A program made the translations under genes and the position numbers. This document shows, piece after piece, positions 2,667 to 12,103 of a stretch of DNA of 49,804 bases. Source of the DNA: Dehalococcoidia bacterium (GTDB lineage Bacteria > Chloroflexota > Dehalococcoidia > GIF9 > AB-539-J10); NCBI GenBank assembly GCA_014859205.1, contig JACUUR010000003.1:1-49804 (forward strand), read 5' to 3'. Each line of letters starts with the position of its first letter. Within the stretch, counting starts at the first letter, position 1. The notes under the pieces are model-generated. The model was not told the DNA's origin. It did no database searches and saw nothing but the letters and a program-made list of their open reading frames with translations.

Positions 2667-3500
2667 ATGTCCATCCGCATAGTCACTCTGAGCGAGAATA
2701 CAGCCGGGAGGGTCAACCTGCTGGCCGAGTGGGGACTCTCGATTCTGGTCGAGGTGGACGGGTGCAGGATTCTATTCGACACCGGGCTGACCTGCTCAGC
2801 AGCATACAATGCCATCGCCCTGGGAGTAGACCTGTCGCAGCTCGACCGGATAGTCCTGAGCCATGGTCACCTGGACCATACCGGCGGGCTGCTGCGCATC
2901 CTCAATATGATCAAGGGCGAGGTAGAGGTGATCGCCCACCCGGATATCTGGGCACTGAAGTATTCAAAGCCCCCTCAGGGATCCGAGCACTATATAGGCA
3001 CGCCTTTCCGCCGGGAAGCGGCCGAGACGCTCGGTGCCGATTTCAAGCTGACCAGCGAACCCGTGTGGCTCAGCCAGAACACCGTCACCAGCGGTGAGAT
3101 AGCCATGACTACCGAATACGAGGACACCGGCTCGATGTTTTATGTCAAGGAGCAGGGTAAACTGAGGCCCGACCCACTGCTGGACGACCAGGCGCTGTTC
3201 GTTAAGTCCGACAAGGGCCTGATCATAATCCTGGGCTGTGCGCATCGGGGAGTGGTTAGCACCATAAGGCATGCCCAGAAGCTAACGGGGTTAGAGCAGA
3301 TCTATGCAGTTGTAGGCGGCACTCATCTGATCGGGGCTTCACCAGAGCGACTGGATTCAACGATTGCCGCATTAAAGGGTGCCGGCGTGAGGATGCTGGG
3401 GGTATCTCACTGCACAGGCCTGCCCGCATCCGTCATCCTGGCCCGGGAGTTCGGTCAGGCTTTTTTCTTCAACAATGCCGGTACCCTGGTCAACCTCTAA
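2667..3500 (+). CDS. MBL-fold metallo-hydrolase (MJ0448/dihydropterin synthase-like)
   Basis: AEWGLS, LFDTG, SHGHLDHTGG, GCAHRG, GGTHL, SHCTG motifs. Confidence 0.9.
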   Translation: MSIRIVTLSENTAGRVNLLAEWGLSILVEVDGCRILFDTGLTCSAAYNAIALGVDLSQLDRIVLSHGHLDHTGGLLRILNMIKGEVEVIAHPDIWALKYSKPPQGSEHYIGTPFRREAAETLGADFKLTSEPVWLSQNTVTSGEIAMTTEYEDTGSMFYVKEQGKLRPDPLLDDQALFVKSDKGLIIILGCAHRGVVSTIRHAQKLTGLEQIYAVVGGTHLIGASPERLDSTIAALKGAGVRMLGVSHCTGLPASVILAREFGQAFFFNNAGTLVNL

Positions 3501-3701: not shown

Positions 3702-3730
3702 TTGACAGAGATAAAGTGCAACGTTACCAT
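3702..3730 (+). promoter_or_regulatory. sigma70 promoter of ars-type operon
   Basis: TTGACA (3702-3707), 17 nt spacer, TACCAT (3725-3730). Confidence 0.75.
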
Positions 3731-3751
3731 ATATGCGGATATTCGCATATA
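3730..3751. promoter_or_regulatory. putative ArsR operator palindrome
   Basis: TATATGCGGATATTCGCATATA, a 22-bp near-perfect inverted repeat over the predicted transcription start just upstream of arsR; a partial copy TGCGAATAT lies at 3671-3679. Confidence 0.75.
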
Positions 3752-3777
3752 AGGATGCAGCGGTTCATCAGCCGACA

Positions 3778-4146
3778 ATGAAAGATCTGGTGAAGGCCTT
3801 CAAGGCCCTGTCCGACGAGACCAGGATCAGAATCCTGAAGGTCTTGCTAGAGCGGGAGTGCTGCGTTTGTGAAATCATGCAGGCGCTTGACATCTCCCAG
3901 TCTCGTACGTCACGCAATCTAAGCGTACTTGAGAACGCCGGATTCGTGAGGTCCAGAAGGAATGGCCTGTGGAAGGTCTACTCGATCAATCAACAAGAGA
4001 TGGGCAATCATGCCAACCGGCTGACTGAATGGCTGCGGGGCGCCGCCATTGACGAGCAGGTCGTACGGCAGGACAGAGAGAGGTTGAGTCATGCGGTGCG
4101 GGTGGGACCGAAAGCGGTGCCCGGGCGACGAAATCCCAAGCATTGA
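3778..4146 (+). CDS. arsR: ArsR/SmtB family metalloid-sensing repressor
   Basis: FKALSDETRIRIL...ECCVCEI...SQSRTSRNL winged HTH with vicinal cysteines; start placed at ATG 3778 because ATG 3733 lies inside the operator. Confidence 0.9.
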   Translation: MKDLVKAFKALSDETRIRILKVLLERECCVCEIMQALDISQSRTSRNLSVLENAGFVRSRRNGLWKVYSINQQEMGNHANRLTEWLRGAAIDEQVVRQDRERLSHAVRVGPKAVPGRRNPKH

Positions 4147-4159
4147 TTGAGAGTTCAGA

Positions 4160-5266
4160 ATGGGCATTGCGGTCGGAATTCTCAGGGGCGGGCTGGCCGA
4201 GTTGGCCGAGTACTTGCTGGCCCACTTCGTGACCTGTCTGATTCCAGCCTTCTTCATAGCCGGAGGCATTAGCACCTTTCTCTCGCAGGCAGCAATCCTG
4301 AAGTACTTCGGCCACGGGGCCAATAGATGGCTCTCATATGGCGTAGCCTCGGTGTCCGGTACTGTCCTCAGCGTGTGTTCCTGCACGGTGCTGCCGCTCT
4401 TTGCCGGCATATACCGTGTAGGCGCCGGGCTTGGTCCGGCAGTCGCCTTCCTCTATTCCGGACCGGCTATAAACGTGCTGGCGATAGTGTGGACCGCGAG
4501 GATTCTGGGCTTCGACCTGGGAGTTGCCCGGGCAGTCGGTGCGGTGGTCTTTGCTGTGGTGATCGGAATGGTCATGGCCAGGGTGTTCTGCAAAGAGGAG
4601 AGAGAACAGGCGAATGCAGACCTGGCCATCGCTGCAGCAACCGGCGGCATCAAGGGATGGCAGTCGGCGATTCTTCTGTTTAGTCTGATAGGGATCCTCG
4701 TCTCGCTGGCCTGGGGGATCAGGATAGTACCGGAGAAGAACATAGAGACGTGGGCGCTTATTACAGGAGTGGACGTTGCGGTGAACCCCGTCGCGTCCTC
4801 GTTCGCCGGGCTGTTCCTGGTGGCGCTTGCCGTTCTGCTTAAACACTGGCTCACACGTGAGGACATCATGGAGTGGCTCAGAGCAACCTGGTCCTTCTTC
4901 AAACTCGTCGTGCCCTGGCTGCTGGGAGGAATCTTTGTCGCGGGGATGATAGGGGTGGTGCTGCCCAGTGAATGGGTAGTGCGCATTGTGGGCGGAAACA
5001 GCCTGCCCTCGAATTTCATCGCTTCGTTTACCGGCATGCTGTTTTACTTCGCCACGTTGACTGAGGTTCCCATCCTCAGGACGTTCATGGATGCGGGGAT
5101 GGGCAAGGGCCCCGCCCTGGCACTGCTGCTGGCAGGGCCGGCACTGAGCCTCCCCAGCATACTGGTGCTGCGGCGCGTCATGGGAACCAGAAAGACGGTT
5201 GTCTACGCAGGTCTGTCCGTGGTCATGGCCACGACTACCGGATTCATATTCGGGCTTTTGAGATAA
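4160..5266 (+). CDS. ArsP-like (DUF318) permease
   Basis: Polytopic membrane protein with CLIPAFFIAG, VCSCTVLPLF, LYSGPAINVLA, YFATLTEVP, LLAGPALSLP motifs; follows arsR. Confidence 0.88.
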   Translation: MGIAVGILRGGLAELAEYLLAHFVTCLIPAFFIAGGISTFLSQAAILKYFGHGANRWLSYGVASVSGTVLSVCSCTVLPLFAGIYRVGAGLGPAVAFLYSGPAINVLAIVWTARILGFDLGVARAVGAVVFAVVIGMVMARVFCKEEREQANADLAIAAATGGIKGWQSAILLFSLIGILVSLAWGIRIVPEKNIETWALITGVDVAVNPVASSFAGLFLVALAVLLKHWLTREDIMEWLRATWSFFKLVVPWLLGGIFVAGMIGVVLPSEWVVRIVGGNSLPSNFIASFTGMLFYFATLTEVPILRTFMDAGMGKGPALALLLAGPALSLPSILVLRRVMGTRKTVVYAGLSVVMATTTGFIFGLLR

Positions 5267-5282: not shown

Positions 5283-5528
5283 GTGAAGATCGAGATTTGC
5301 GGACCGGGTTGTGCCAAGTGTCACGCCACCGTGGACAATGTGCGCAGGGTGGTTCAAGAACTGGGACTGGAGGACACGGTGGAACTGGAGGAAATCAAGG
5401 ACATAGTGACCATCAGCAAGAAAGGAGTGTTTCTGACCCCTGCGGTTGTCATCGATGGTGTGAAGGTCTCCGAGGGCAGGATCGCCAGGGATGAGGAGAT
5501 CAAGAAGTGGCTTGAGGAGAGAAGATAA
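5283..5528 (+). CDS. small redox-active disulfide protein (MTH895-type thioredoxin)
   Basis: MKIEICGPGCAKC...GVFLTPAVVIDG; AGGAGG RBS, GTG start. Confidence 0.9.
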   Translation: MKIEICGPGCAKCHATVDNVRRVVQELGLEDTVELEEIKDIVTISKKGVFLTPAVVIDGVKVSEGRIARDEEIKKWLEERR

Positions 5529-5530
5529 GA

Positions 5531-5797
5531 ATGGTAGAGACGAAACCATGTTGTAATGCTGCCGCGGCAAGGATGGTAGGCAGGCTGGTTCTGCCGGACG
5601 GGTCTGAGGTAGGCATCCGGAACCTGGAGGGCATCCTCAAGGAGGTCGCCGAACTGAAGTTGACCGACGACGGTTCCATCAGGCGGGAATTGCTGAAAAA
5701 GGTGAAGATCTATAACTATGTAGCACCCGGTGCAGAGACAGATTACTCCGATGCATTGTTCAGTGAATATGAGAAGCTAGCTGAGAGGGACAGGTGA
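5531..5797 (+). CDS. small hypothetical protein with N-terminal CC pair
   Basis: Tightly packed in the operon; MVETKPCC...VGIRNLEGILKEV...KIYNYVAP. Confidence 0.75.
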   Translation: MVETKPCCNAAAARMVGRLVLPDGSEVGIRNLEGILKEVAELKLTDDGSIRRELLKKVKIYNYVAPGAETDYSDALFSEYEKLAERDR

Positions 5798-6018
5798 GCT
5801 TATCCACACAGGAGCTTGAACACAGACTGAGGACAGCTGAGGACAGGTTCACCCTCTCGAAGCTGAGGGAGGAGATCGACGCTCTCATGCAGAGTCCTGA
5901 GTTCCAGCAGCTTTCCCAGAGAGACAAGAACCGCGTTGAGGACTTGCTGGTGGAACTGCTGGCCAAGGAGGAGCAGTACAAGGGGTGTGATCCCTTCAGG
6001 GCCATCCTGGGACAGTGA
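5794..6018 (+). CDS. small helical hypothetical protein
   Basis: GTGA overlap with upstream gene; charged helical 74 aa ending YKGCDPFRAILGQ. Confidence 0.7.
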   Translation: MSLSTQELEHRLRTAEDRFTLSKLREEIDALMQSPEFQQLSQRDKNRVEDLLVELLAKEEQYKGCDPFRAILGQ

Positions 6019-6084: not shown

Positions 6085-6531
6085 ATGGCAGAAGCGAAAC
6101 ACGCCGAAGAAGGGATGAGGACACACGAGAACGTGATATTCTCGTGCTACGGTGGCTTCTCGAACACAGGCATAACCAGCGCGCTGGCCTGCCTCGAGGC
6201 CGTAAAGGAATTGGGTCTGGAAAAGGCGGCAATAGGGTGTCTGGCGGCGCTACCCCTGGGGATCAAGCCTGTGATAGGTAAGGCGGCGGCGGCCCAGCGG
6301 ATCGTCACAGTGGACGGCTGTCCCTCTGAGTGCGCCCGGAAAACGGTCGAGCAGGCCAACCTCTCGCTTACCACGAGCATCGTGCTGACAAGGGATATAG
6401 ACATGAAGAAGAAGCCGCTGCATGAGGACATCGGCCAGGGTGTCAGGGGAGTTATGGAGTACATTTCGGACGACGAAGTGAAGAGGGCAAAAGAACTGAT
6501 AATAAAGGCCATATCGGATGGTGCCAACTAG
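6085..6531 (+). CDS. DGC-domain putative zinc-binding protein
   Basis: IFSCYGGFSNTG, GCLAAL, VTVDGCPSECARK motifs; AAGGAGG RBS. Confidence 0.88.
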   Translation: MAEAKHAEEGMRTHENVIFSCYGGFSNTGITSALACLEAVKELGLEKAAIGCLAALPLGIKPVIGKAAAAQRIVTVDGCPSECARKTVEQANLSLTTSIVLTRDIDMKKKPLHEDIGQGVRGVMEYISDDEVKRAKELIIKAISDGAN

Positions 6532-6628: not shown

Positions 6629-7465
6629 ATGCTAAAGGTGAAACCGGCGGATGGCTATCCTCCCGAGGAGGGTCGCTATGTGAGGGGTAACGATTATTCC
6701 CCCGTAGCAGTCTGCGTAATCCTGGACACCTTTGACTTCAAGATACCGCCCGAACTGAACGGGCTTGTGATGGCAGGAGCGGACACCGGTGCCGCCCTCT
6801 CAGGCATGCTGCAGACAGAGAACATAGGCATGGAGAAGATGATCTGCAATATCGCGGCTAATCCGAATATTCGCTACATCGTGCTGTGTGGAAGGGAGTC
6901 AGCCGGGCATCTCCCGGGGCAATCGCTGATGGCGCTCAAGCTCAACGGTGTCGATCAGGGAAGGCGTATCATTGGCACCGAAGCTCCAACGCCACATCTC
7001 CACAATATTCCTGCGCAGTTGATAGACAGGTTCCGGAGTCAGATCATAGACATCGTCGACCTGCTATGTCAGCCTGGCGAAAGCGACACCGGACTCCCGG
7101 GACTAGATCCTAAGATGATAGAAAAGGCAGTCTGGAGCTGCTATCAGGAAGAGCCGGTACGATTTCTACAGTATAGCCTCTATGACTTGGGGGCATACCC
7201 GGAGCCGCCGATACTCCATAAGCTGGCATCAAAGCTGGACCAGCCCCAGCAGGACATTATGCAGCCGGGCAAATCGAATCTGAACATGGGGCTCATGCTC
7301 AATAAATTCCTGCCCAGGACGAACTGCAAAGAGTGTGGACGGCGAACCTGCCTGGCTTTTGCCATCGACCTGGGCAAGGGTAAGGCCCAGCTTCAGGAAT
7401 GCCCTGTGCTGGATCAGCCCGAGTTTAAGGCTGACAGGGAGGCTTTGACCAAGGTCCTAGATTAA
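6629..7465 (+). CDS. MtrA-like corrinoid protein fused to a C-terminal putative Fe-S (CxxCxxxxC...C) domain
   Basis: KVKPADGYPPEEGRY, TENIGMEKMICNIAANPNIRYIVLCGRESAGHLPGQSL match the MtrA family including the cobalt-ligand His; tail LPRTNCKECGRRTCLAFA...CP. Start placed at ATG 6629 (AAGGA RBS). Confidence 0.85.
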   Translation: MLKVKPADGYPPEEGRYVRGNDYSPVAVCVILDTFDFKIPPELNGLVMAGADTGAALSGMLQTENIGMEKMICNIAANPNIRYIVLCGRESAGHLPGQSLMALKLNGVDQGRRIIGTEAPTPHLHNIPAQLIDRFRSQIIDIVDLLCQPGESDTGLPGLDPKMIEKAVWSCYQEEPVRFLQYSLYDLGAYPEPPILHKLASKLDQPQQDIMQPGKSNLNMGLMLNKFLPRTNCKECGRRTCLAFAIDLGKGKAQLQECPVLDQPEFKADREALTKVLD

Positions 7466-7577
7466 GCTACGATGACACCTTTGAATTGGGACTGCGTTTG
7501 GACAGCCAGTTGCGTCAACTGGTTCCCGGTGACGCAACGGGTTCAACATGGGCCCCGATCATGCAGAGGGGGCAAAG

Positions 7578-8630
7578 ATGGCTGAGAAAGAACGAAAGCT
7601 CGGTATCTGGGGAAAGTTCCTGACCTTATGGGTAGCGCTGTGTATCGTTGCCGGGGTCGGACTGGGATATCTGTTCCCGGGGCTCTCGGAGTTGCTGGCC
7701 CGACTGGAGGTGCGGGGCATCTCCATACCTATCGCCATATTGCTGTTTGCCATGATCTACCCGATCATGGTGCAGATATGCTGGGAGGAGATCCGAAATG
7801 CATTTCGTTCACCCAAACCGATCGGCCTTACCCTGTTTGCCAATTGGGCCGTCAAGCCTTTCACCATGGCTCTGTTCGCCTGGCTATTCCTGAGCGTGAT
7901 CTTCGGCCGCTACCTTACACCTGAGCAGGTCGAGCAGTACCGCGCCGGAACGATACTGCTCGGCGTCGCCCCGTGTACGGCGATGGTGCTGGTCTGGAGC
8001 TACCTGGCCAGGGGCAACATGGGGCATACGCTGGTGATGACCGCCATAAACTCGCTGAGCATGGTCGTGCTGTACGCGCCTCTGGCCGCTCTGCTCCTGG
8101 GCATCTCTGGCGTGACGGTTCCCTGGGATACCATAGCCCTTTCTGTGGCGTTCTACATCGTGACTCCACTTGTAGCCGGCTTTCTAACGCGCAGGTGGGC
8201 GATCCGACGGAAAGGGCTGGAGTGGTGCGAGTGCACCCTGGAGCCCAACCTGGGGAAGGTCTCTATAATCGCGCTGCTGGTAACACTGGTTGTCCTGTTC
8301 ATGTACCAGGGCCACATCATCGTGGAGCTACCAGCCGTGGTGGGCATGATTACCGTGGCTATACTGGTGAACATTCTGGTGGTCTTCGGCATTACCTATC
8401 TGGCGGCCCGTGTCATGAAACTCAGATACGCCGACGCAATTCCGGCCGCCATCATCGCGGGCAGCAACCACTTCGAGGTGGCGATCGCCGTGGCTACGAC
8501 CCTGTTTGGAGTGGCCTCGGGAGCAGCCCTGGCTACAGTGGTAGGCGTGTTAACTGAGGTGCCAATAATGCTTTCTCTGGTGGCGATTTCGCTGTTGACC
8601 AGAAAGACCTTTCCTAAGCATCTGCGCTAG
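7578..8630 (+). CDS. acr3: Acr3 family arsenite efflux transporter
   Basis: LTLWVALCI, MIYPIM, NWAVKPFTM, APCTAMVLVW, SNHFEVAIAVA, VGVLTEVPIM motifs. Confidence 0.95.
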   Translation: MAEKERKLGIWGKFLTLWVALCIVAGVGLGYLFPGLSELLARLEVRGISIPIAILLFAMIYPIMVQICWEEIRNAFRSPKPIGLTLFANWAVKPFTMALFAWLFLSVIFGRYLTPEQVEQYRAGTILLGVAPCTAMVLVWSYLARGNMGHTLVMTAINSLSMVVLYAPLAALLLGISGVTVPWDTIALSVAFYIVTPLVAGFLTRRWAIRRKGLEWCECTLEPNLGKVSIIALLVTLVVLFMYQGHIIVELPAVVGMITVAILVNILVVFGITYLAARVMKLRYADAIPAAIIAGSNHFEVAIAVATTLFGVASGAALATVVGVLTEVPIMLSLVAISLLTRKTFPKHLR

Positions 8631-8686: not shown

Positions 8687-8715
8687 TTGCCTGATCATGA
8701 CGTGAGTGCTAGAAT
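8687..8715 (+). promoter_or_regulatory. putative promoter of the Ig/PKD-like protein cluster
   Basis: TTGCCT-17 nt-TAGAAT with TGn extension, 60 nt upstream of the 8775 start. Confidence 0.55.
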
Positions 8716-8774
8716 ATTGTGTCGGGCAGGTACGGTGGGTCGGCGACCGGCAAGACTCTGCAGGAGATATGGTG

Positions 8775-9440
8775 ATGAAGAGAATATTTAGCGTAGCGGT
8801 GATCATTGGGGCAGCGGCCATACTGCTACTCGCCTCAGCGTGCACGGGCTCCCCGTTTCCGACTATCAGTAGCCTGACATCAGACGCAACCTGGACGGCT
8901 CCCGGCGATAGTCTGCGGGTTAGTTGTGTAGCCTCGGTGTCCGGCGGCGGCGAACTGAGTTACTCGTGGTCGGCCAGCCGCGGTACGGTAACCGGCTCCG
9001 GCCCCGTGGTTGATTGGACCGCTCCCCAGCAGGTTGGCATGTACGACATCACCGTTGTGGTTACCAGTGCTCAAGGCAGAACAGAGACGCAGTCGCTGAG
9101 CCTGATAGTATCCAATGGCCCTCCGCCGAGTATTCAGGGCCTGGTCGTAACCGCCAGAGACCACACGTACCTGCGGACAACTGCTGCCGGGTACCAAGCC
9201 GCGAGGACATACGAGTACGATATTGAGTGCATGGCTTCGGCCACACAGGGCGAGATTACCTACGAGTGGTCCCATGATGGAGGCGAGATCGACGGAGACG
9301 GCTCAGCCGTTATCTGGACAGCTCCGGATAGGGACGGCCGGGTCACAGTCACCGTCAAGGTCTTCGATGGTGAAGGTAACTGGGCAAGTAAGAGCCTGGT
9401 CTTTCAGGTGGTAGACTGCGAGGCATGTGTGGTCTGGTGA
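8775..9440 (+). CDS. lipoprotein with two Ig/PKD-like repeats and C-terminal CxxC tail (paralog 1; possible Sec read-through to 9512)
   Basis: AGGAG RBS; lipobox LASAC; repeats with Y-W...G...V-WTAP...Y-ITV-V; ends VVDCEACVVW-UGA. Confidence 0.85.
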   Translation: MKRIFSVAVIIGAAAILLLASACTGSPFPTISSLTSDATWTAPGDSLRVSCVASVSGGGELSYSWSASRGTVTGSGPVVDWTAPQQVGMYDITVVVTSAQGRTETQSLSLIVSNGPPPSIQGLVVTARDHTYLRTTAAGYQAARTYEYDIECMASATQGEITYEWSHDGGEIDGDGSAVIWTAPDRDGRVTVTVKVFDGEGNWASKSLVFQVVDCEACVVW

Positions 9441-9451
9441 TATGGAGAGAA

Positions 9452-9469
9452 GAGTGACGGTGTACGCTC
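9452..9469 (+). promoter_or_regulatory. putative bacterial SECIS hairpin (paralog 1)
   Basis: GAGTGAC-GGT-GTACGCTC stem-loop with one bulge and one G-U, starting 11 nt after UGA 9438-9440; GGT at +19 to +21. Confidence 0.45.
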
Positions 9470-9520
9470 GGGATGCATGATCAAGACGGTAATGAGGGTG
9501 GATCTGCAGTAGGTGGAAGC

Positions 9521-10474
9521 ATGAAGACAAAGACTCATCTGATCATCGCGGCGATGGTAGCTCTGGCGGTGACTATGCTCATATTGTCCTGCACTGAGGA
9601 GGCTGACCAGCCGCTCGACCCCGATCCACCCGTGATCCAAAGTCTGGAGGCCGAATCGACCAGTGTTTTCCACTCCGAGAGCATACAGATTACGTGCACT
9701 GTTTCAGCCCCCGACGGCGCTGAACTAACCTATGAATGGTGGGCCAGTGGAGGTGAGGTAGACGGACAGGGAGCCACGGTCGTCTGGACGGCTCCGGACT
9801 CGGAAGGCTCCTATGATGTCGGTGTGATAGTGACCGATGGGCATGGTGGTGGCGCCATGCAGCACGTGACCATAGAGGTGATGGCCAACAGGCCGCCTGT
9901 AATCAGCAGCATGACGGCCAGTGCGGACTGGGCTTTTCCCGGTGGGGGCGTGACGATTACCTGCCACGCTGAGGACCCGGACGGTCATGCCATAACCTAC
10001 GAGTGGTCGGCGAGCGCAGGGCATATCGAAGGGACGGGGCGAGAGGTGACGTGGACCGCGCCCGACCCATTGGGCGAATACAGCGTAACCGTTGTGGTGA
10101 GCGACGAGTACGGAGGCCTGGACACGAGGACACTCCAGATCAGCGTAATGCCGGAGCAGCCACCGATCATTGAAGCTCTACTTGTCACAGCCAACCACCG
10201 CTGGCTGAGAACACGCTCCTTTGGATATCAGGTTGGGTACGCTCAAGAGTACAGCATCGAGTGTGTTGCCTCCCATCCCGAGGGCTCTGAGCTACACTAC
10301 GAATGGACATGCAACGGTGGCGAGATAGTGGAGACCTCAGAGGACGGTGCCACGGTCACCTGGGTGGCTCCCAACACATCGGTGTACGTTACGGTCACGG
10401 TTACGGTGTCCGATATCGGCGGCAATACTGCCACTAGAAGCGTAGATTTGGAGGTGATCCCCTGCTGGACCTGA
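9521..10474 (+). CDS. lipoprotein with three Ig/PKD-like repeats; probable selenoprotein ending C-W-T-U (end 10477 if UGA is Sec)
   Basis: Hydrophobic leader ending ILSC; three PP(V/I)I...WTAP/WVAP repeats; ends VIPCWT-TGA-TAG followed by a SECIS-like hairpin. Confidence 0.88.
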   Translation: MKTKTHLIIAAMVALAVTMLILSCTEEADQPLDPDPPVIQSLEAESTSVFHSESIQITCTVSAPDGAELTYEWWASGGEVDGQGATVVWTAPDSEGSYDVGVIVTDGHGGGAMQHVTIEVMANRPPVISSMTASADWAFPGGGVTITCHAEDPDGHAITYEWSASAGHIEGTGREVTWTAPDPLGEYSVTVVVSDEYGGLDTRTLQISVMPEQPPIIEALLVTANHRWLRTRSFGYQVGYAQEYSIECVASHPEGSELHYEWTCNGGEIVETSEDGATVTWVAPNTSVYVTVTVTVSDIGGNTATRSVDLEVIPCWT

Positions 10475-10485
10475 TAGAGGATAAG

Positions 10486-10504
10486 CAGCCCTGGTTCAGG
10501 GCTG
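10486..10504 (+). promoter_or_regulatory. putative bacterial SECIS hairpin (paralog 2)
   Basis: CAGCCCT-GGTTC-AGGGCTG, 11 nt after in-frame UGA 10472-10474; no U-tract. Confidence 0.7.
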
Positions 10505-10548
10505 AGTCTTCGCGGGAGCCGGCGTGGCTATTGATCTGAGGTGAGATC

Positions 10549-11499
10549 ATGCACAGGAAGAAGCTGATAGTCGTCGCGGTGATCATGGCGATAGCCGTGC
10601 CTCTCTCGATTGTGGCAGTGCTGGCGGCTGCCAGCCCTCCTCCGGTCATTGAGAGCCTGGAGGCTGACCCCGAGAGGGTTTTTCCTTCGGGGAGCACGCA
10701 GATTGTGTGTACGGTGTCAGGCCCTGATGGTGCTTCACTAAGCTATGAATGGTGGGCAAGCGAGGGCGAAATAGACGGAGACGGTGCGATGGTTACCTGG
10801 ACGGCGCCCGGTGTTGAGAAGATCTGCCACATCAGTGTCACAGTCAGCGATGGACGCGGCCGCCAGGATACCGACACCCTAGTCATCGTCGCGAAACACA
10901 ATCAGCCGCCGGTAGTTCACAGCCTGACTGCCGAGCCGAACTGGACTACTCCCTCGGGCAGCCTCCGGTTGATATGCGATGCTGAAGACCCTGATGGTCA
11001 TACCCTCAGTTACCAGTGGTCGGCAGAGGCCGGGCATTTCGAGGGCACGGGAGCTGAGGTTACCTGGCTGGCTCCCGAACAGACAGGCATATATGAGATC
11101 ACAGTTGTCGTGAGCGATGATTACGGCGGCTCGGCGGCGGACGCGCTATATGTCAGCGTAATGCGGGGTCAGCCACCAGTCGTCGAAGCTCTGCTTGTCA
11201 CAGCGACACATAAGTACCTAAGGCCATCGGCCTCCTCCGAGAGGTATGAGGTGGGCGAAGGGAAGACGTTTGCCATCGAATGCATCGCTTCACATCCAGA
11301 TGGTGTCCAGCTAGCGTATGAGTGGGAGTACGATGCCGGTGAGATAACAGGTGCCTCGGAGGATGAGTCTTCGATCACGTGGACCGCCCCGAGTCGGGGC
11401 GTGACAGCCACAGTCACAGTGACAACATCCGATCCCTCAGGCAACATGGCTCGCAGGAGCGTGAGCCTGGAGGTGGTGTCCTGTTCGAGATTCGGCTGA
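10549..11499 (+). CDS. exported protein with three Ig/PKD-like repeats; probable selenoprotein ending C-S-R-F-G-U (end 11502 if UGA is Sec)
   Basis: GAGGTG RBS, N-terminal signal peptide, collinear paralog of the 9521 gene; ends VVSCSRFG-TGA-TAG followed by the same hairpin. Confidence 0.88.
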   Translation: MHRKKLIVVAVIMAIAVPLSIVAVLAAASPPPVIESLEADPERVFPSGSTQIVCTVSGPDGASLSYEWWASEGEIDGDGAMVTWTAPGVEKICHISVTVSDGRGRQDTDTLVIVAKHNQPPVVHSLTAEPNWTTPSGSLRLICDAEDPDGHTLSYQWSAEAGHFEGTGAEVTWLAPEQTGIYEITVVVSDDYGGSAADALYVSVMRGQPPVVEALLVTATHKYLRPSASSERYEVGEGKTFAIECIASHPDGVQLAYEWEYDAGEITGASEDESSITWTAPSRGVTATVTVTTSDPSGNMARRSVSLEVVSCSRFG

Positions 11500-11510
11500 T
11501 AGAAGACAGA

Positions 11511-11528
11511 CAGCCCTGGTTCAGGGCT
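11511..11528 (+). promoter_or_regulatory. putative bacterial SECIS hairpin (paralog 3)
   Basis: CAGCCCTGGTTCAGGGCT, identical over 18 nt to 10486-10503 and again 11 nt after UGA (11497-11499). Confidence 0.7.
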
Positions 11529-11620
11529 CAATCCTCCGGAAAGCGACCTTCCTTATGCAGGATGCTCCGTCTCGACACAGGAGTTTGCACAGAGAGCACA
11601 TTCTAGGTTAGTATCTATCG

Positions 11621-12103
11621 ATGAGCAACTGGTTCGTCGGATCGCTCAGAGAGGCCTTCCGGGACCGACACAGGAAGTATGTGACCGTATCGCTGCTGGT
11701 GGCGGGGATAACGTTGATAGTGATCGGGCAGCAGGCGGCAGGGCGGGGTCCCGCGATGCCGCAGGAGCCCCCAGACATCGAAGCCGTGCTGGTTACCAAG
11801 GACCGTCACGGACACTGTTATCTCAGAACGGACGAGTCGGGCTATAAGGTCGGCAGGGGCCAGAAATACGACATCGAGTGTGTCGTCTCAGACACAGGCT
11901 TCGAGTTGTTCTATGAATGGTTATGCGAGGACGGCGAGATTGCTGCTCAGGATGGATCCATGATAACCTGGGTCGCCCCTAATACATCCACGCACGTTAC
12001 GGTGACGGTCACAGTCTCTGATGCAGCCGGCCATGCAGTCAGCGAAGACATAGCGATCAACGTAGTCTCTTGCTCGGTCTGTACGTTTGGCAGATGCCCA
12101 TAG
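11621..12103 (+). CDS. membrane-anchored single Ig/PKD-like domain protein with Cys-rich tail (paralog 4, all-Cys form)
   Basis: N-terminal TM; domain homologous to the last repeat of paralogs 1-3 (IEAVLVT...CYLR...YDIEC...TWVAPNTS); ends VVSCSVCTFGRCP-TAG. Confidence 0.85.
   Translation: MSNWFVGSLREAFRDRHRKYVTVSLLVAGITLIVIGQQAAGRGPAMPQEPPDIEAVLVTKDRHGHCYLRTDESGYKVGRGQKYDIECVVSDTGFELFYEWLCEDGEIAAQDGSMITWVAPNTSTHVTVTVTVSDAAGHAVSEDIAINVVSCSVCTFGRCP

Follow-up and report, generated by a model that had tools for sequence, protein, structure and literature searches.

The 49,804-nucleotide stretch analysed here (contig JACUUR010000003.1 of assembly GCA_014859205.1, Dehalococcoidia bacterium; hereafter the window) carries at positions 6629-7465 of the + strand a gene for a 278-residue protein in which an MtrA-like, putative cobamide-binding domain is fused to a [4Fe-4S]-type domain. 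This fusion is a regular, dedicated and co-oriented member of ArsR-headed arsenic islands, where it forms a module with the arsenite efflux carrier Acr3, and the linkage is robust and clade-specific. Its domains and setting make it likely that the fusion serves arsenic detoxification as a cobamide/Fe-S protein. The narrower reading that we favour, in which it would transfer methyl groups between cobalt and arsenic, is put forward tentatively and falls somewhat short of being probable. As a member of ars clusters the fusion is so far undescribed, and its presence there points to B12-dependent arsenic chemistry.

Domains and cofactor sites of the fusion protein

The open reading frame (ORF) starts with an ATG at 6629 and ends with a stop codon at 7463-7465, and its assignment as an MtrA-like/[4Fe-4S] fusion draws on the ORF, Pfam, alignments, AlphaFold2 and Foldseek. 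The MtrA-like cobamide-binding domain was assigned to residues 3-200 (6635-7228, + strand) by Pfam, alignment to MtrA structures and Foldseek, and is followed by a low-confidence linker at residues 205-215 (7241-7273, +) and by a CFeSP/RnfB-type Fe-S domain at residues 228-260 (7310-7408, +), the latter recognised by Pfam, NCBIfam, alignment and Foldseek and containing cysteines 233, 236, 241 and 258. Pfam MtrA (PF04208) covers residues 3-146 (E 2.3e-36, 125.5 bits, cut-off 25) and Pfam FeS (PF04060) residues 228-260 (E 5.2e-12, 45.7 bits, cut-off 23). Among the NCBIfam models, residues 1-205 fell narrowly below the threshold of the soluble MtrA subfamily NF002126 (158.6 bits, cut-off 161), and the true-MtrA equivalog TIGR01111 was failed (124.5 bits, cut-off 249). 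The tail aligned with roughly the first 50 residues of the CFeSP gamma and RnfB models and no more, and the AcsC equivalog NF003195 was likewise failed, with 51.6 bits against a cut-off of 306 over residues 221-268 only. No HgcA-related family was present among the Pfam and NCBIfam matches of the protein. When compared with solved structures, residues 3-147 aligned to the MtrA chains 5laa, 5l8x and 8q3v, and the phmmer match of residues 221-263 was to the cluster domain at the N-terminus of CFeSP (2h9a, 4c1n, 4djd).

An AlphaFold2 model built on 61 sequences had a mean predicted local distance difference test score (pLDDT) of 88.8. Block averages for residues 1-200 were 88-98 (about 96 overall), values dropped below 50 in residues 205-215, modelled as a disordered linker, and residues 216-278 formed a small helical domain with a pLDDT of about 68-82. 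Foldseek matched the N-terminal domain to 5l8x_A (E 5.9e-17, target-normalised TM score 0.92, root-mean-square deviation (rmsd) 1.7 A) and the C-terminal domain to 4djd_C (56 columns, rmsd 1.7 A, 50% identity). A terminal membrane helix in place of the MtrA anchor was not found in the model, and the gene product is thus predicted to be a soluble two-domain protein. These results bear out most of what a first-pass annotation of the window had seen in the bare sequence, namely an MtrA-family domain with its His retained, fused to a CxxCxxxxC...C domain of the kind found on AcsC/CdhE and RnfB, with neither a membrane anchor nor other mtr genes in its company; the PF04208 match is the only one in the host genome and MtrH was not found there.

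The predicted cobamide site was examined by alignment with 5laa, the MtrA homologue of Methanothermus fervidus. In the available text of Wagner et al. (PMC4915002), His84 of 5laa is the lower axial cobalt ligand and Glu54 takes part in the hydrogen-bond chain of His84, Asn55 contacts a propionamide, Thr53, Gly57 and Asn64 contact the nucleotide tail, and the base is held between Tyr18 and Val61. The fusion contains the motif CGRESAGHLPGQSL, in which the His, at position 94 (codon 6908-6910), is the aligned counterpart of His84 in 5laa. In the same alignment Tyr18, Thr53, Glu54, Asn55, Gly57, Val61, Asn64 and His84 correspond to Y17, T63, E64, N65, G67, M71, N74 and H94 of the fusion, and all but one of these contacts are invariant across 31 fusion proteins, M71 being the sole exception. 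The Fe-S cysteines are spaced C233-x2-C236-x4-C241-x16-C258, and all four are invariant across the same 31 homologues, as are five more cysteines at positions 29, 73, 87, 147 and 171. With these contact residues and cysteines conserved, the sequence therefore meets the needs of a His-on cobamide site and of a [4Fe-4S] site. We infer that the fusion binds a cobamide in the base-off/His-on mode and carries a [4Fe-4S] cluster.

Cys73 is the counterpart of Ala63 in 5laa, and because that residue adjoins the tail-pocket residue Asn64, Cys73 is probably not catalytic. An apparent in-frame TGA at this position in a homologue from another genome (G355) was considered as a selenocysteine codon and rejected, as the DNA shows a one-base deletion and hence a frameshift. 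The deletion lies in the Cys73 codon of that homologue (L055, about 8600-8612, - strand) and marks either a pseudogene or an assembly error.

Linkage of the fusion to arsenic resistance genes

The first-pass annotation had proposed that homologues of the fusion be surveyed for enrichment near ars genes, and such enrichment was clearly found. A survey of 401 Dehalococcoidia genomes, each checked for the fusion and for Acr3 above cut-off, identified the two-domain fusion in 14, with one copy frameshifted and one cut by a contig end, and Acr3 in 122. In all 14 genomes with the fusion, fusion and acr3 lay on one contig and on the same strand, at most 2.3 kb apart. By locus, acr3 was present at 17 of the 19 genome loci carrying the fusion, and one of the loci without it ends right after the fusion, with arsR, a permease, Trx_3 and orf6 (a small ORF of the window cluster, described below) upstream.

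A metagenome scan returned at least 553 confirmed stretches encoding a relative, of which the best 80 were examined (hereafter the metagenome loci). Acr3 was encoded in 59 of the 80, within 2.5 kb of the fusion in 58, and at least one of ArsR, an ArsP-type permease, Acr3, ArsM, ArsC or ArsA in 66; of the 14 loci devoid of a core ars gene, 13 are contigs of 4.1 kb or less. Where a downstream flank was available (65 loci), acr3 was the next gene 3' of the fusion in 42. All neighbour matches lay on the strand of the fusion (67/67 for Acr3, for example), and two loci, L081 and L138, are minimal three-gene operons of the form arsR-fusion-acr3. Acr3 partners of two classes were found, sharing about 87% and 35-39% identity with the Acr3 of the window, so that inheritance as a single block does not suffice to explain the pairing of fusion with acr3. 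For control, five further MtrA-like genes of Dehalococcoidia, 33-42% identical and of other architectures, were inspected, and none had an ars neighbour within about 8 kb.

In a quick maximum-likelihood (ML) tree of 82 MtrA-like domains, for which support values are Shimodaira-Hasegawa-like approximate likelihood ratios (SH-aLRT) only, all 46 rows with an ars context fell inside one clade of 66 rows (SH-aLRT 99), within which the fusion forms a subclade of 41 rows (SH-aLRT 99). The context labels used a 30% identity floor, by which a few weakly ars-linked Bathyarchaeia loci were labelled 'noars'. Canonical MtrA representatives, thymidylate-synthase-like fusions and the five controls all lay outside the ars clade. 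The linkage with ars genes spans Dehalococcoidia, Deltaproteobacteria metagenome-assembled genomes (MAGs), Bathyarchaeia, Hadarchaeota and a Thermococci-labelled MAG. In a protein set clustered at 90% identity the fusion has about 2,600 relatives, and the best 120 of them, 74-100% identical, are all derived from MAGs or metagenomes and are annotated either as 'tetrahydromethanopterin S-methyltransferase subunit A' or as '(Fe-S)-binding protein'. The former name, when applied to non-methanogens, might wrongly suggest methane metabolism.

Relatives of other architectures were also found in ars settings. Bathyarchaeota, Hadarchaeota and the Thermococci-labelled MAG have close relatives with no Fe-S domain, beside DGC, arsR, acr3 or permease genes, and one Bathyarchaeota relative, with a 2x[4Fe-4S] ferredoxin fused at its N-terminus, lies beside arsR, a permease, DGC and an ArsD-like gene. 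Among 251 Bathyarchaeia genomes, 19 besides that of the query itself contained a relative at E below 1e-60; 18 loci were retrieved, of which nine had matches to Acr3, ArsP-type, ArsM or ArsC, several more had ArsR, DGC or Trx_3, and one long locus had none of these. The DGC proteins of Dehalococcoidia and of the Bathyarchaeota, Hadarchaeota or Thermococci-labelled MAGs are 59-65% identical (window 6085-6531 and L008, L009, L010, L181, L184, L185), which suggests, at the level of sequence, that island genes move between Bacteria and Archaea.

Relatives in other settings deserve description in their own right. L137 (5267-8501) holds a fusion homologue, 64% identical, in the only long ars-free locus among the 80 metagenome loci. 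A DUF3786 gene follows this homologue, the opposite strand encodes a URO-D/MtaA-type methyltransferase, and an ORF of 949 residues is close by; these surroundings are the setting of a corrinoid methyl carrier. The MtrA-like domain is also fused to thymidylate-synthase-like domains (P0154, P0164, P0172, P0182), to PterinBD-DUF4346 (P0179, P0193) and, in P0129, which shares 56% identity with the window protein over residues 1-208, to TusA at the N-terminus, and no description of these three kinds of fusion was found in the literature consulted. An MtrA-only relative, 56% identical and with no ars genes within 8 kb (genome G040, L057:8004-9280, - strand), lies directly 3' of a gene for a 221-residue protein that consists of the C-terminal domain of the acetyl-CoA synthase/carbon monoxide dehydrogenase (ACS/CODH) beta subunit alone.

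In the window the fusion belongs to a cluster of eight genes, all on the + strand and separated by gaps of -4 to 97 nt, in the order arsR, PF03773 permease, Trx_3, two small ORFs, DGC, fusion and acr3. Its position between DGC (6085-6531) and acr3 (7548-8630) in a cluster headed by arsR is as had first been noted. A sigma-70-like promoter, TTGACA-17-TACCAT (3702-3730, +), lies 5' of arsR and is a consensus match only, at 10 of 12 positions; a 14+14-nt palindrome with arms 86% complementary and 0 nt apart (3727-3754) lies over its -10 hexamer and is a candidate ArsR operator. The arsR gene (3733-4146; likely true start ATG 3778) encodes an ArsR/SmtB metalloregulator with a CCVC motif (HTH_5 E 2e-17; NF033788 91.9 bits, cut-off 55), and is followed by a predicted permease of PF03773 (ArsP_1; 4160-5266), which with 251 bits stays below every NCBIfam equivalog cut-off, and by a small thioredoxin-like protein (5283-5528; Thioredoxin_3, NCBIfam 'MTH895/ArsE family', TIGR00412 77.1 bits, cut-off 62). 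The two small ORFs match no Pfam or NCBIfam family: orf5 (5531-5797) encodes 88 residues with an N-terminal CC pair and has homologues in 11/80 metagenome loci, and orf6 (5794-6018) encodes 74 residues, is present in 7/80 and has a homologue directly 5' of the fusion in two Deltaproteobacteria loci. The DGC-domain protein (PF08859 60.5 bits) has four invariant cysteines (C21, C52, C79, C83) and was modelled with a pLDDT of 89.6; Foldseek returned no PDB match to this model at E<=0.001. Acr3 itself scored 357.7 bits with TIGR00832 (cut-off 282.8). No terminator-like site was found on the + strand between 3400 and 9000, and the shared strand, the spacing and the absence of such sites suggest that the cluster is co-transcribed.

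Directly 3' of acr3 are four tandem paralogues (8706-12103, +), secreted or lipoprotein-like, with PKD/Big_9 Ig-like repeats and Cys-rich C-termini. The PKD/Big_9 family is found inside the ars islands of 29/80 metagenome loci, always co-oriented and often flanking an ArsG-family permease. Just 5' of arsR a protein of metallo-beta-lactamase (MBL) fold is encoded (2667-3500, +), a 53% identical homologue of which (L007:1380-2213) is encoded, in another Chloroflexota MAG, some 3.7 kb away from a relative that has the MtrA-like domain only; this may be coincidence. The remaining genes of the window are housekeeping genes (RadA-like, Clp ATPase, LeuRS, GluRS, UvrB, PepA, UvrD, MutL). GC content stays at 0.55-0.61 along the window without a shift at the ars cluster, and there is therefore no compositional sign of recent import.

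The host genome (1.67 Mb, 95.7% complete) has the window fusion gene as its sole PF04208 match; searches of it for MtrH (PF02007) and for a URO-D-type methyltransferase found neither. Six B12-binding and three pterin-binding matches suggest that the host uses cobamides and has possible methyl acceptor enzymes. A second arsenic-type locus was found on contig C52 (L194:1-4600 of host genome G000), with PF03773-like permease fragments, an ArsM homologue (50-51% identical to island ArsM, 242.8 bits), a ferredoxin-like match and an ArsC-like gene of the low-molecular-weight (LMW) phosphatase type. The early remark that the operon has no recognisable arsC or arsM thus holds for the operon only.

Across the metagenome loci, the commonest upstream neighbour was an ArsG-family DsbD_2 permease, found in 40/80 and directly 5' of the fusion in 14 (NCBIfam ArsG aromatic-arsenical efflux, 266.5 bits, cut-off 200). 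PKD/Ig-like secreted proteins (29/80) and Trx_3 (26/80) also recurred. LMW-phosphatase ArsC was present in 16/80, as was a genuine arsM, which scored 364 bits with the NCBIfam arsenite methyltransferase model (cut-off 263), a CcdA-like membrane protein in 11/80, DUF169 in 10/80, MauE/DoxX-thioredoxin in 7/80, FmdE with TauE in 6/80 and ArsA in 2/80. A second PF04060 protein of about 180 residues, with an uncharacterised N-terminal part of 120 residues, was encoded in 15/80 loci, usually just 5' of acr3 or of the ArsG-family gene (e.g. L043:11558-12100, - strand); no similarity was detected between it and the DUF3786 protein of L137, and its ESM Atlas clusters are unnamed or FeS-named only. At L043:5425-6066 (-, genome G212) there is a 213-residue MOSC-domain protein, an N-terminal stretch of which closely resembles the last 20 or so residues of the fusion and may be a remnant of a rearrangement.

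Candidate roles of the fusion in arsenic detoxification

Both domains of the fusion appear, by homology, to descend from methyl-carrier corrinoid systems. Cobamide methyltransferases typically have a His of the protein as ligand, while cobamide reductases (reductive dehalogenases and QueG) have no protein ligand, and the [4Fe-4S] domain of CFeSP serves cobalt reduction. A corrinoid methyl carrier is favoured here because of this shared descent, the His ligand, the single tethered CFeSP-like cluster and the methyltransferase context of L137. The MtrA-type domain would hold a cobamide in the base-off/His-on state, and the flexibly tethered CFeSP-type [4Fe-4S] domain would restore Co(I) once the cobalt had become oxidised. 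Co(I) would then take a methyl group from a pentavalent methylarsenical, in a reversal of the oxidative methylation step, leaving As(III) for Acr3 or a trivalent methylarsenical for other permeases, and methyl-Co(III) would be discharged onto an acceptor encoded elsewhere. The opposite direction, from methyl-Co(III) to As(III), would be chemically possible. Since the constant partner Acr3 is an As(III) exporter, a reaction yielding As(III) fits, and the direction is probably demethylation of pentavalent methylarsenicals to As(III) for Acr3. Methanogens are known to methylate arsenic with methylcobalamin through a side activity of MtaA (Thomas et al. 2011, cited in the accessible part of PMC13262295), and the enzymes of anaerobic arsenic demethylation are called unresolved in the available part of a preprint (bioRxiv 10.64898/2026.08.27.747368). 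In its fullest form our proposal is that the fusion would supply the cobamide protein of an arsenic methyl-transfer system, the first to be both B12-dependent and regulated by arsenic, either as an anaerobic counterpart of ArsI, giving methyl-Co(III) and As(III) for Acr3, or, run in reverse, as a SAM-independent methylase; that it arose independently of HgcAB on the same corrinoid, Fe-S and ArsR design; and that it spread between Bacteria and Archaea with ars islands. Taken together these claims are speculative, and we regard the whole as a possibility rather than a probability.

Several observations weigh against methyl transfer with arsenic. No conserved neighbour with a recognised corrinoid methyltransferase fold is found in the islands, and the host genome lacks MtrH and a URO-D match. 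The occurrence of arsM in 16/80 metagenome loci and of an ArsM homologue on host contig C52 means that the fusion is no stand-in for ArsM, and demethylation next to methylation would seem futile; the SAM-independent framing of the first-pass annotation, if read as a replacement for ArsM, is weakened. LMW-phosphatase ArsC lies directly 5' of the fusion in 8/80 loci. Most recurrent neighbours (ArsG-family DsbD_2, Trx_3, CcdA-like, MauE/DoxX-Trx and the second PF04060 protein) are thiol/disulfide or redox proteins, a neighbourhood with which a redox role agrees no less well. Some long loci, L137 and L179 among them, are without ars genes. Finally, no host has been cultured, every named source of relatives being a MAG.

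The most serious rival is a reductase, in which the Fe-S cluster and the Co(I)/Co(II) couple would reduce a pentavalent arsenical (arsenate, the methylated MAs(V), or an aromatic compound of the roxarsone type) to a trivalent form exportable by Acr3, ArsP-like or ArsG-family permeases, with no methyl group carried. The fusion does occupy the arsC slot of classic arsR-transporter-arsC operons, as in the minimal L081 and L138, its commonest upstream neighbour is of the ArsG aromatic-arsenical efflux family, the islands abound in thiol/disulfide redox proteins, and three redox modules have been fused to the MtrA-like clade (PF04060, the 2x[4Fe-4S] ferredoxin and, in P0129, TusA). However, the conserved His ligand, on general background, and the methyl-carrier homology of both domains would be unusual for a cobamide reductase, a single tethered cluster looks more like the repair set-up of CFeSP than a catalytic electron chain, and arsenate reduction is often already covered, since LMW-phosphatase ArsC adjoins the fusion in those 8/80 loci. 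On this evidence we hold a reductase to be unlikely. An ars-induced protein without arsenic chemistry of its own, which would protect, replace or service cobamide- or thiol-dependent metabolism under arsenic stress, is in our judgement improbable. Candidates for such a protein are a corrinoid carrier insensitive to arsenic, a cobamide buffer preventing methylcobamide from giving rise to toxic methylarsenite, or an electron donor to the membrane thiol-disulfide proteins of the islands. Such a role would agree with islands that lack a methyltransferase partner, with neighbour sets that vary greatly around the constant fusion-acr3 pair, and with the restriction of the fusion to 14 of 122 acr3-bearing Dehalococcoidia genomes, as of an optional accessory. 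Yet the tight, co-oriented adjacency to two divergent Acr3 classes and the three-gene operons argue for a direct role in arsenic handling, and conservation of the Fe-S domain, like the independent acquisition of other Fe-S modules by fusion, would be superfluous in a buffer.

Two further possibilities rank lower still. That the fusion is an ordinary methyl carrier of one-carbon (C1) metabolism, riding on mobile ars islands with no function in arsenic resistance, could be argued from L137, where it stands beside a URO-D-type methyltransferase and DUF3786 and ars genes are absent, and from the other MtrA-like proteins fused to pterin-binding or thymidylate-synthase-like domains. However, the linkage holds over bacterial and archaeal lineages alike, from Dehalococcoidia and Deltaproteobacteria MAGs to Bathyarchaeia, Hadarchaeota and the Thermococci-labelled MAG, and it has outlasted many rearrangements and both Acr3 classes with the strand always shared, which makes a passenger very unlikely. 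Least credible of all is a peripheral subunit through which transport by Acr3 would be gated or driven, a role modelled on that of MtrA in the Mtr sodium pump. MtrA proper does belong, as its cobamide subunit, to a membrane transport complex (available text of PMC4915002), and acr3 immediately follows the fusion in 42 of the 65 loci whose downstream flank is available, but most acr3-bearing genomes have no fusion, MauE/DoxX-Trx or arsM can intervene between the two genes, and the membrane anchor of MtrA is absent.

Methyl transfer between cobalt and arsenic remains our preferred reading, and its place in the literature can be outlined. Bacterial and non-methanogen homologues of MtrA with the His kept have been reported (Wagner et al., PMC4915002, in the text available). 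Later work treats non-methanogen MtrA-like and MtrH proteins as C1 enzymes and, in the portions accessible, makes no mention of arsenic ('arsen' occurs 0 times in the available text of PMC9635834). A published list of ars genes from 2022 contains, in its accessible part, no MtrA-like protein, though the family of every listed gene was not checkable. We found no published account of an MtrA-like or corrinoid protein in ars operons, most subscription journals lying outside the literature searched. In the sources available in part, arsenic methylation is ascribed either to ArsM, which depends on SAM, or to a side reaction of methanogen enzymes that is not regulated, and demethylation to oxygen-dependent ArsI. 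The methylated arsenic of anoxic paddy soils controls rice straighthead disease and grain arsenic, and the fusion, coming from widespread anaerobes of sediments and aquifers, is a concrete, expressible candidate gene for anaerobic arsenic demethylation.

Comparison with known systems

With MtrA and the cytoplasmic MtrA homologues (5l8x, 5laa; Wagner, Ermler and Shima 2016, PMC4915002, in the text available) the fusion shares the Rossmann-like fold, the His ligand and the cobalamin-contact residues, and like the cytoplasmic homologues of methanogens it is predicted to be soluble. It is about 34-36% identical to the solved MtrA structures in structural alignment. In contrast to MtrA, however, it has no juxtamembrane or transmembrane segment, it is accompanied by an ars island instead of mtrB-H genes and methanogenesis, and it has an extra loop at about residues 147-160 as well as the C-terminal Fe-S domain. 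The fusion is thus not MtrA proper, as anchor, operon and equivalog score all fail.

The large subunit of CFeSP (AcsC/CdhE; 4djd, 2ycl, 4c1n) has a homologous [4Fe-4S] domain with identical Cys spacing, flexibly tethered to a cobamide module, and by analogy the Fe-S domain of the fusion would serve the reduction of Co(II) to Co(I). That domain is N-terminal in CFeSP and C-terminal in the fusion, and CFeSP needs TIM-barrel domains and a small subunit, neither of which the fusion has. CFeSP, moreover, binds its cobamide through a B12-binding domain of unrelated type, which provides no His ligand and is likewise absent from the fusion. As judged from its matches, the cluster domain alone corresponds, and the fusion is not CFeSP.

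HgcAB likewise combines a cobamide protein with an Fe-S electron carrier under an ArsR-type regulator, and the pairing of HgcB with HgcA is mirrored by the Bathyarchaeota ferredoxin-MtrA-like fusion. HgcA, however, uses a Cys ligand where the fusion has His, and the fusion has no membrane domain and, among its Pfam and NCBIfam matches, no sequence relationship to HgcA. The fusion is not HgcA; it would operate as MtrA and CFeSP joined in one protein, and its likeness to HgcAB, by analogy, is one of design and of the link to ArsR. In Pseudodesulfovibrio mercurii, hgcAB transcription responds to arsenic and a knockout is more sensitive to As(V), according to the accessible part of a preprint (bioRxiv 10.1101/2022.10.17.512643). 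The comparison with HgcAB drawn in the first-pass annotation gains some weight from the independent Bathyarchaeota fusion of a 2x[4Fe-4S] ferredoxin to an MtrA-like domain in an ars cluster, and the fusion in turn lends independent support to the idea, raised with HgcAB, that corrinoid/Fe-S pairs are anciently tied to arsenic resistance.

Among known ars enzymes, arsenic methyl groups are added by ArsM, an arsenite methyltransferase dependent on S-adenosylmethionine (SAM), and removed by ArsI, an oxygen-dependent C-As lyase, and the role proposed for the fusion would be that of an anaerobic cobamide counterpart. Its folds and cofactors are unrelated to theirs, and as arsM co-occurs with it in 16/80 loci, fusion and ArsM are not alternatives. 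The side reaction of MtaA is likewise a methyl transfer from cobamide to arsenic, and is chemically established. In contrast to the proposed system, arsenic methylation by MtaA is incidental and not arsenic-regulated (accessible part of PMC13262295), whereas the fusion is encoded within an ArsR-headed operon.

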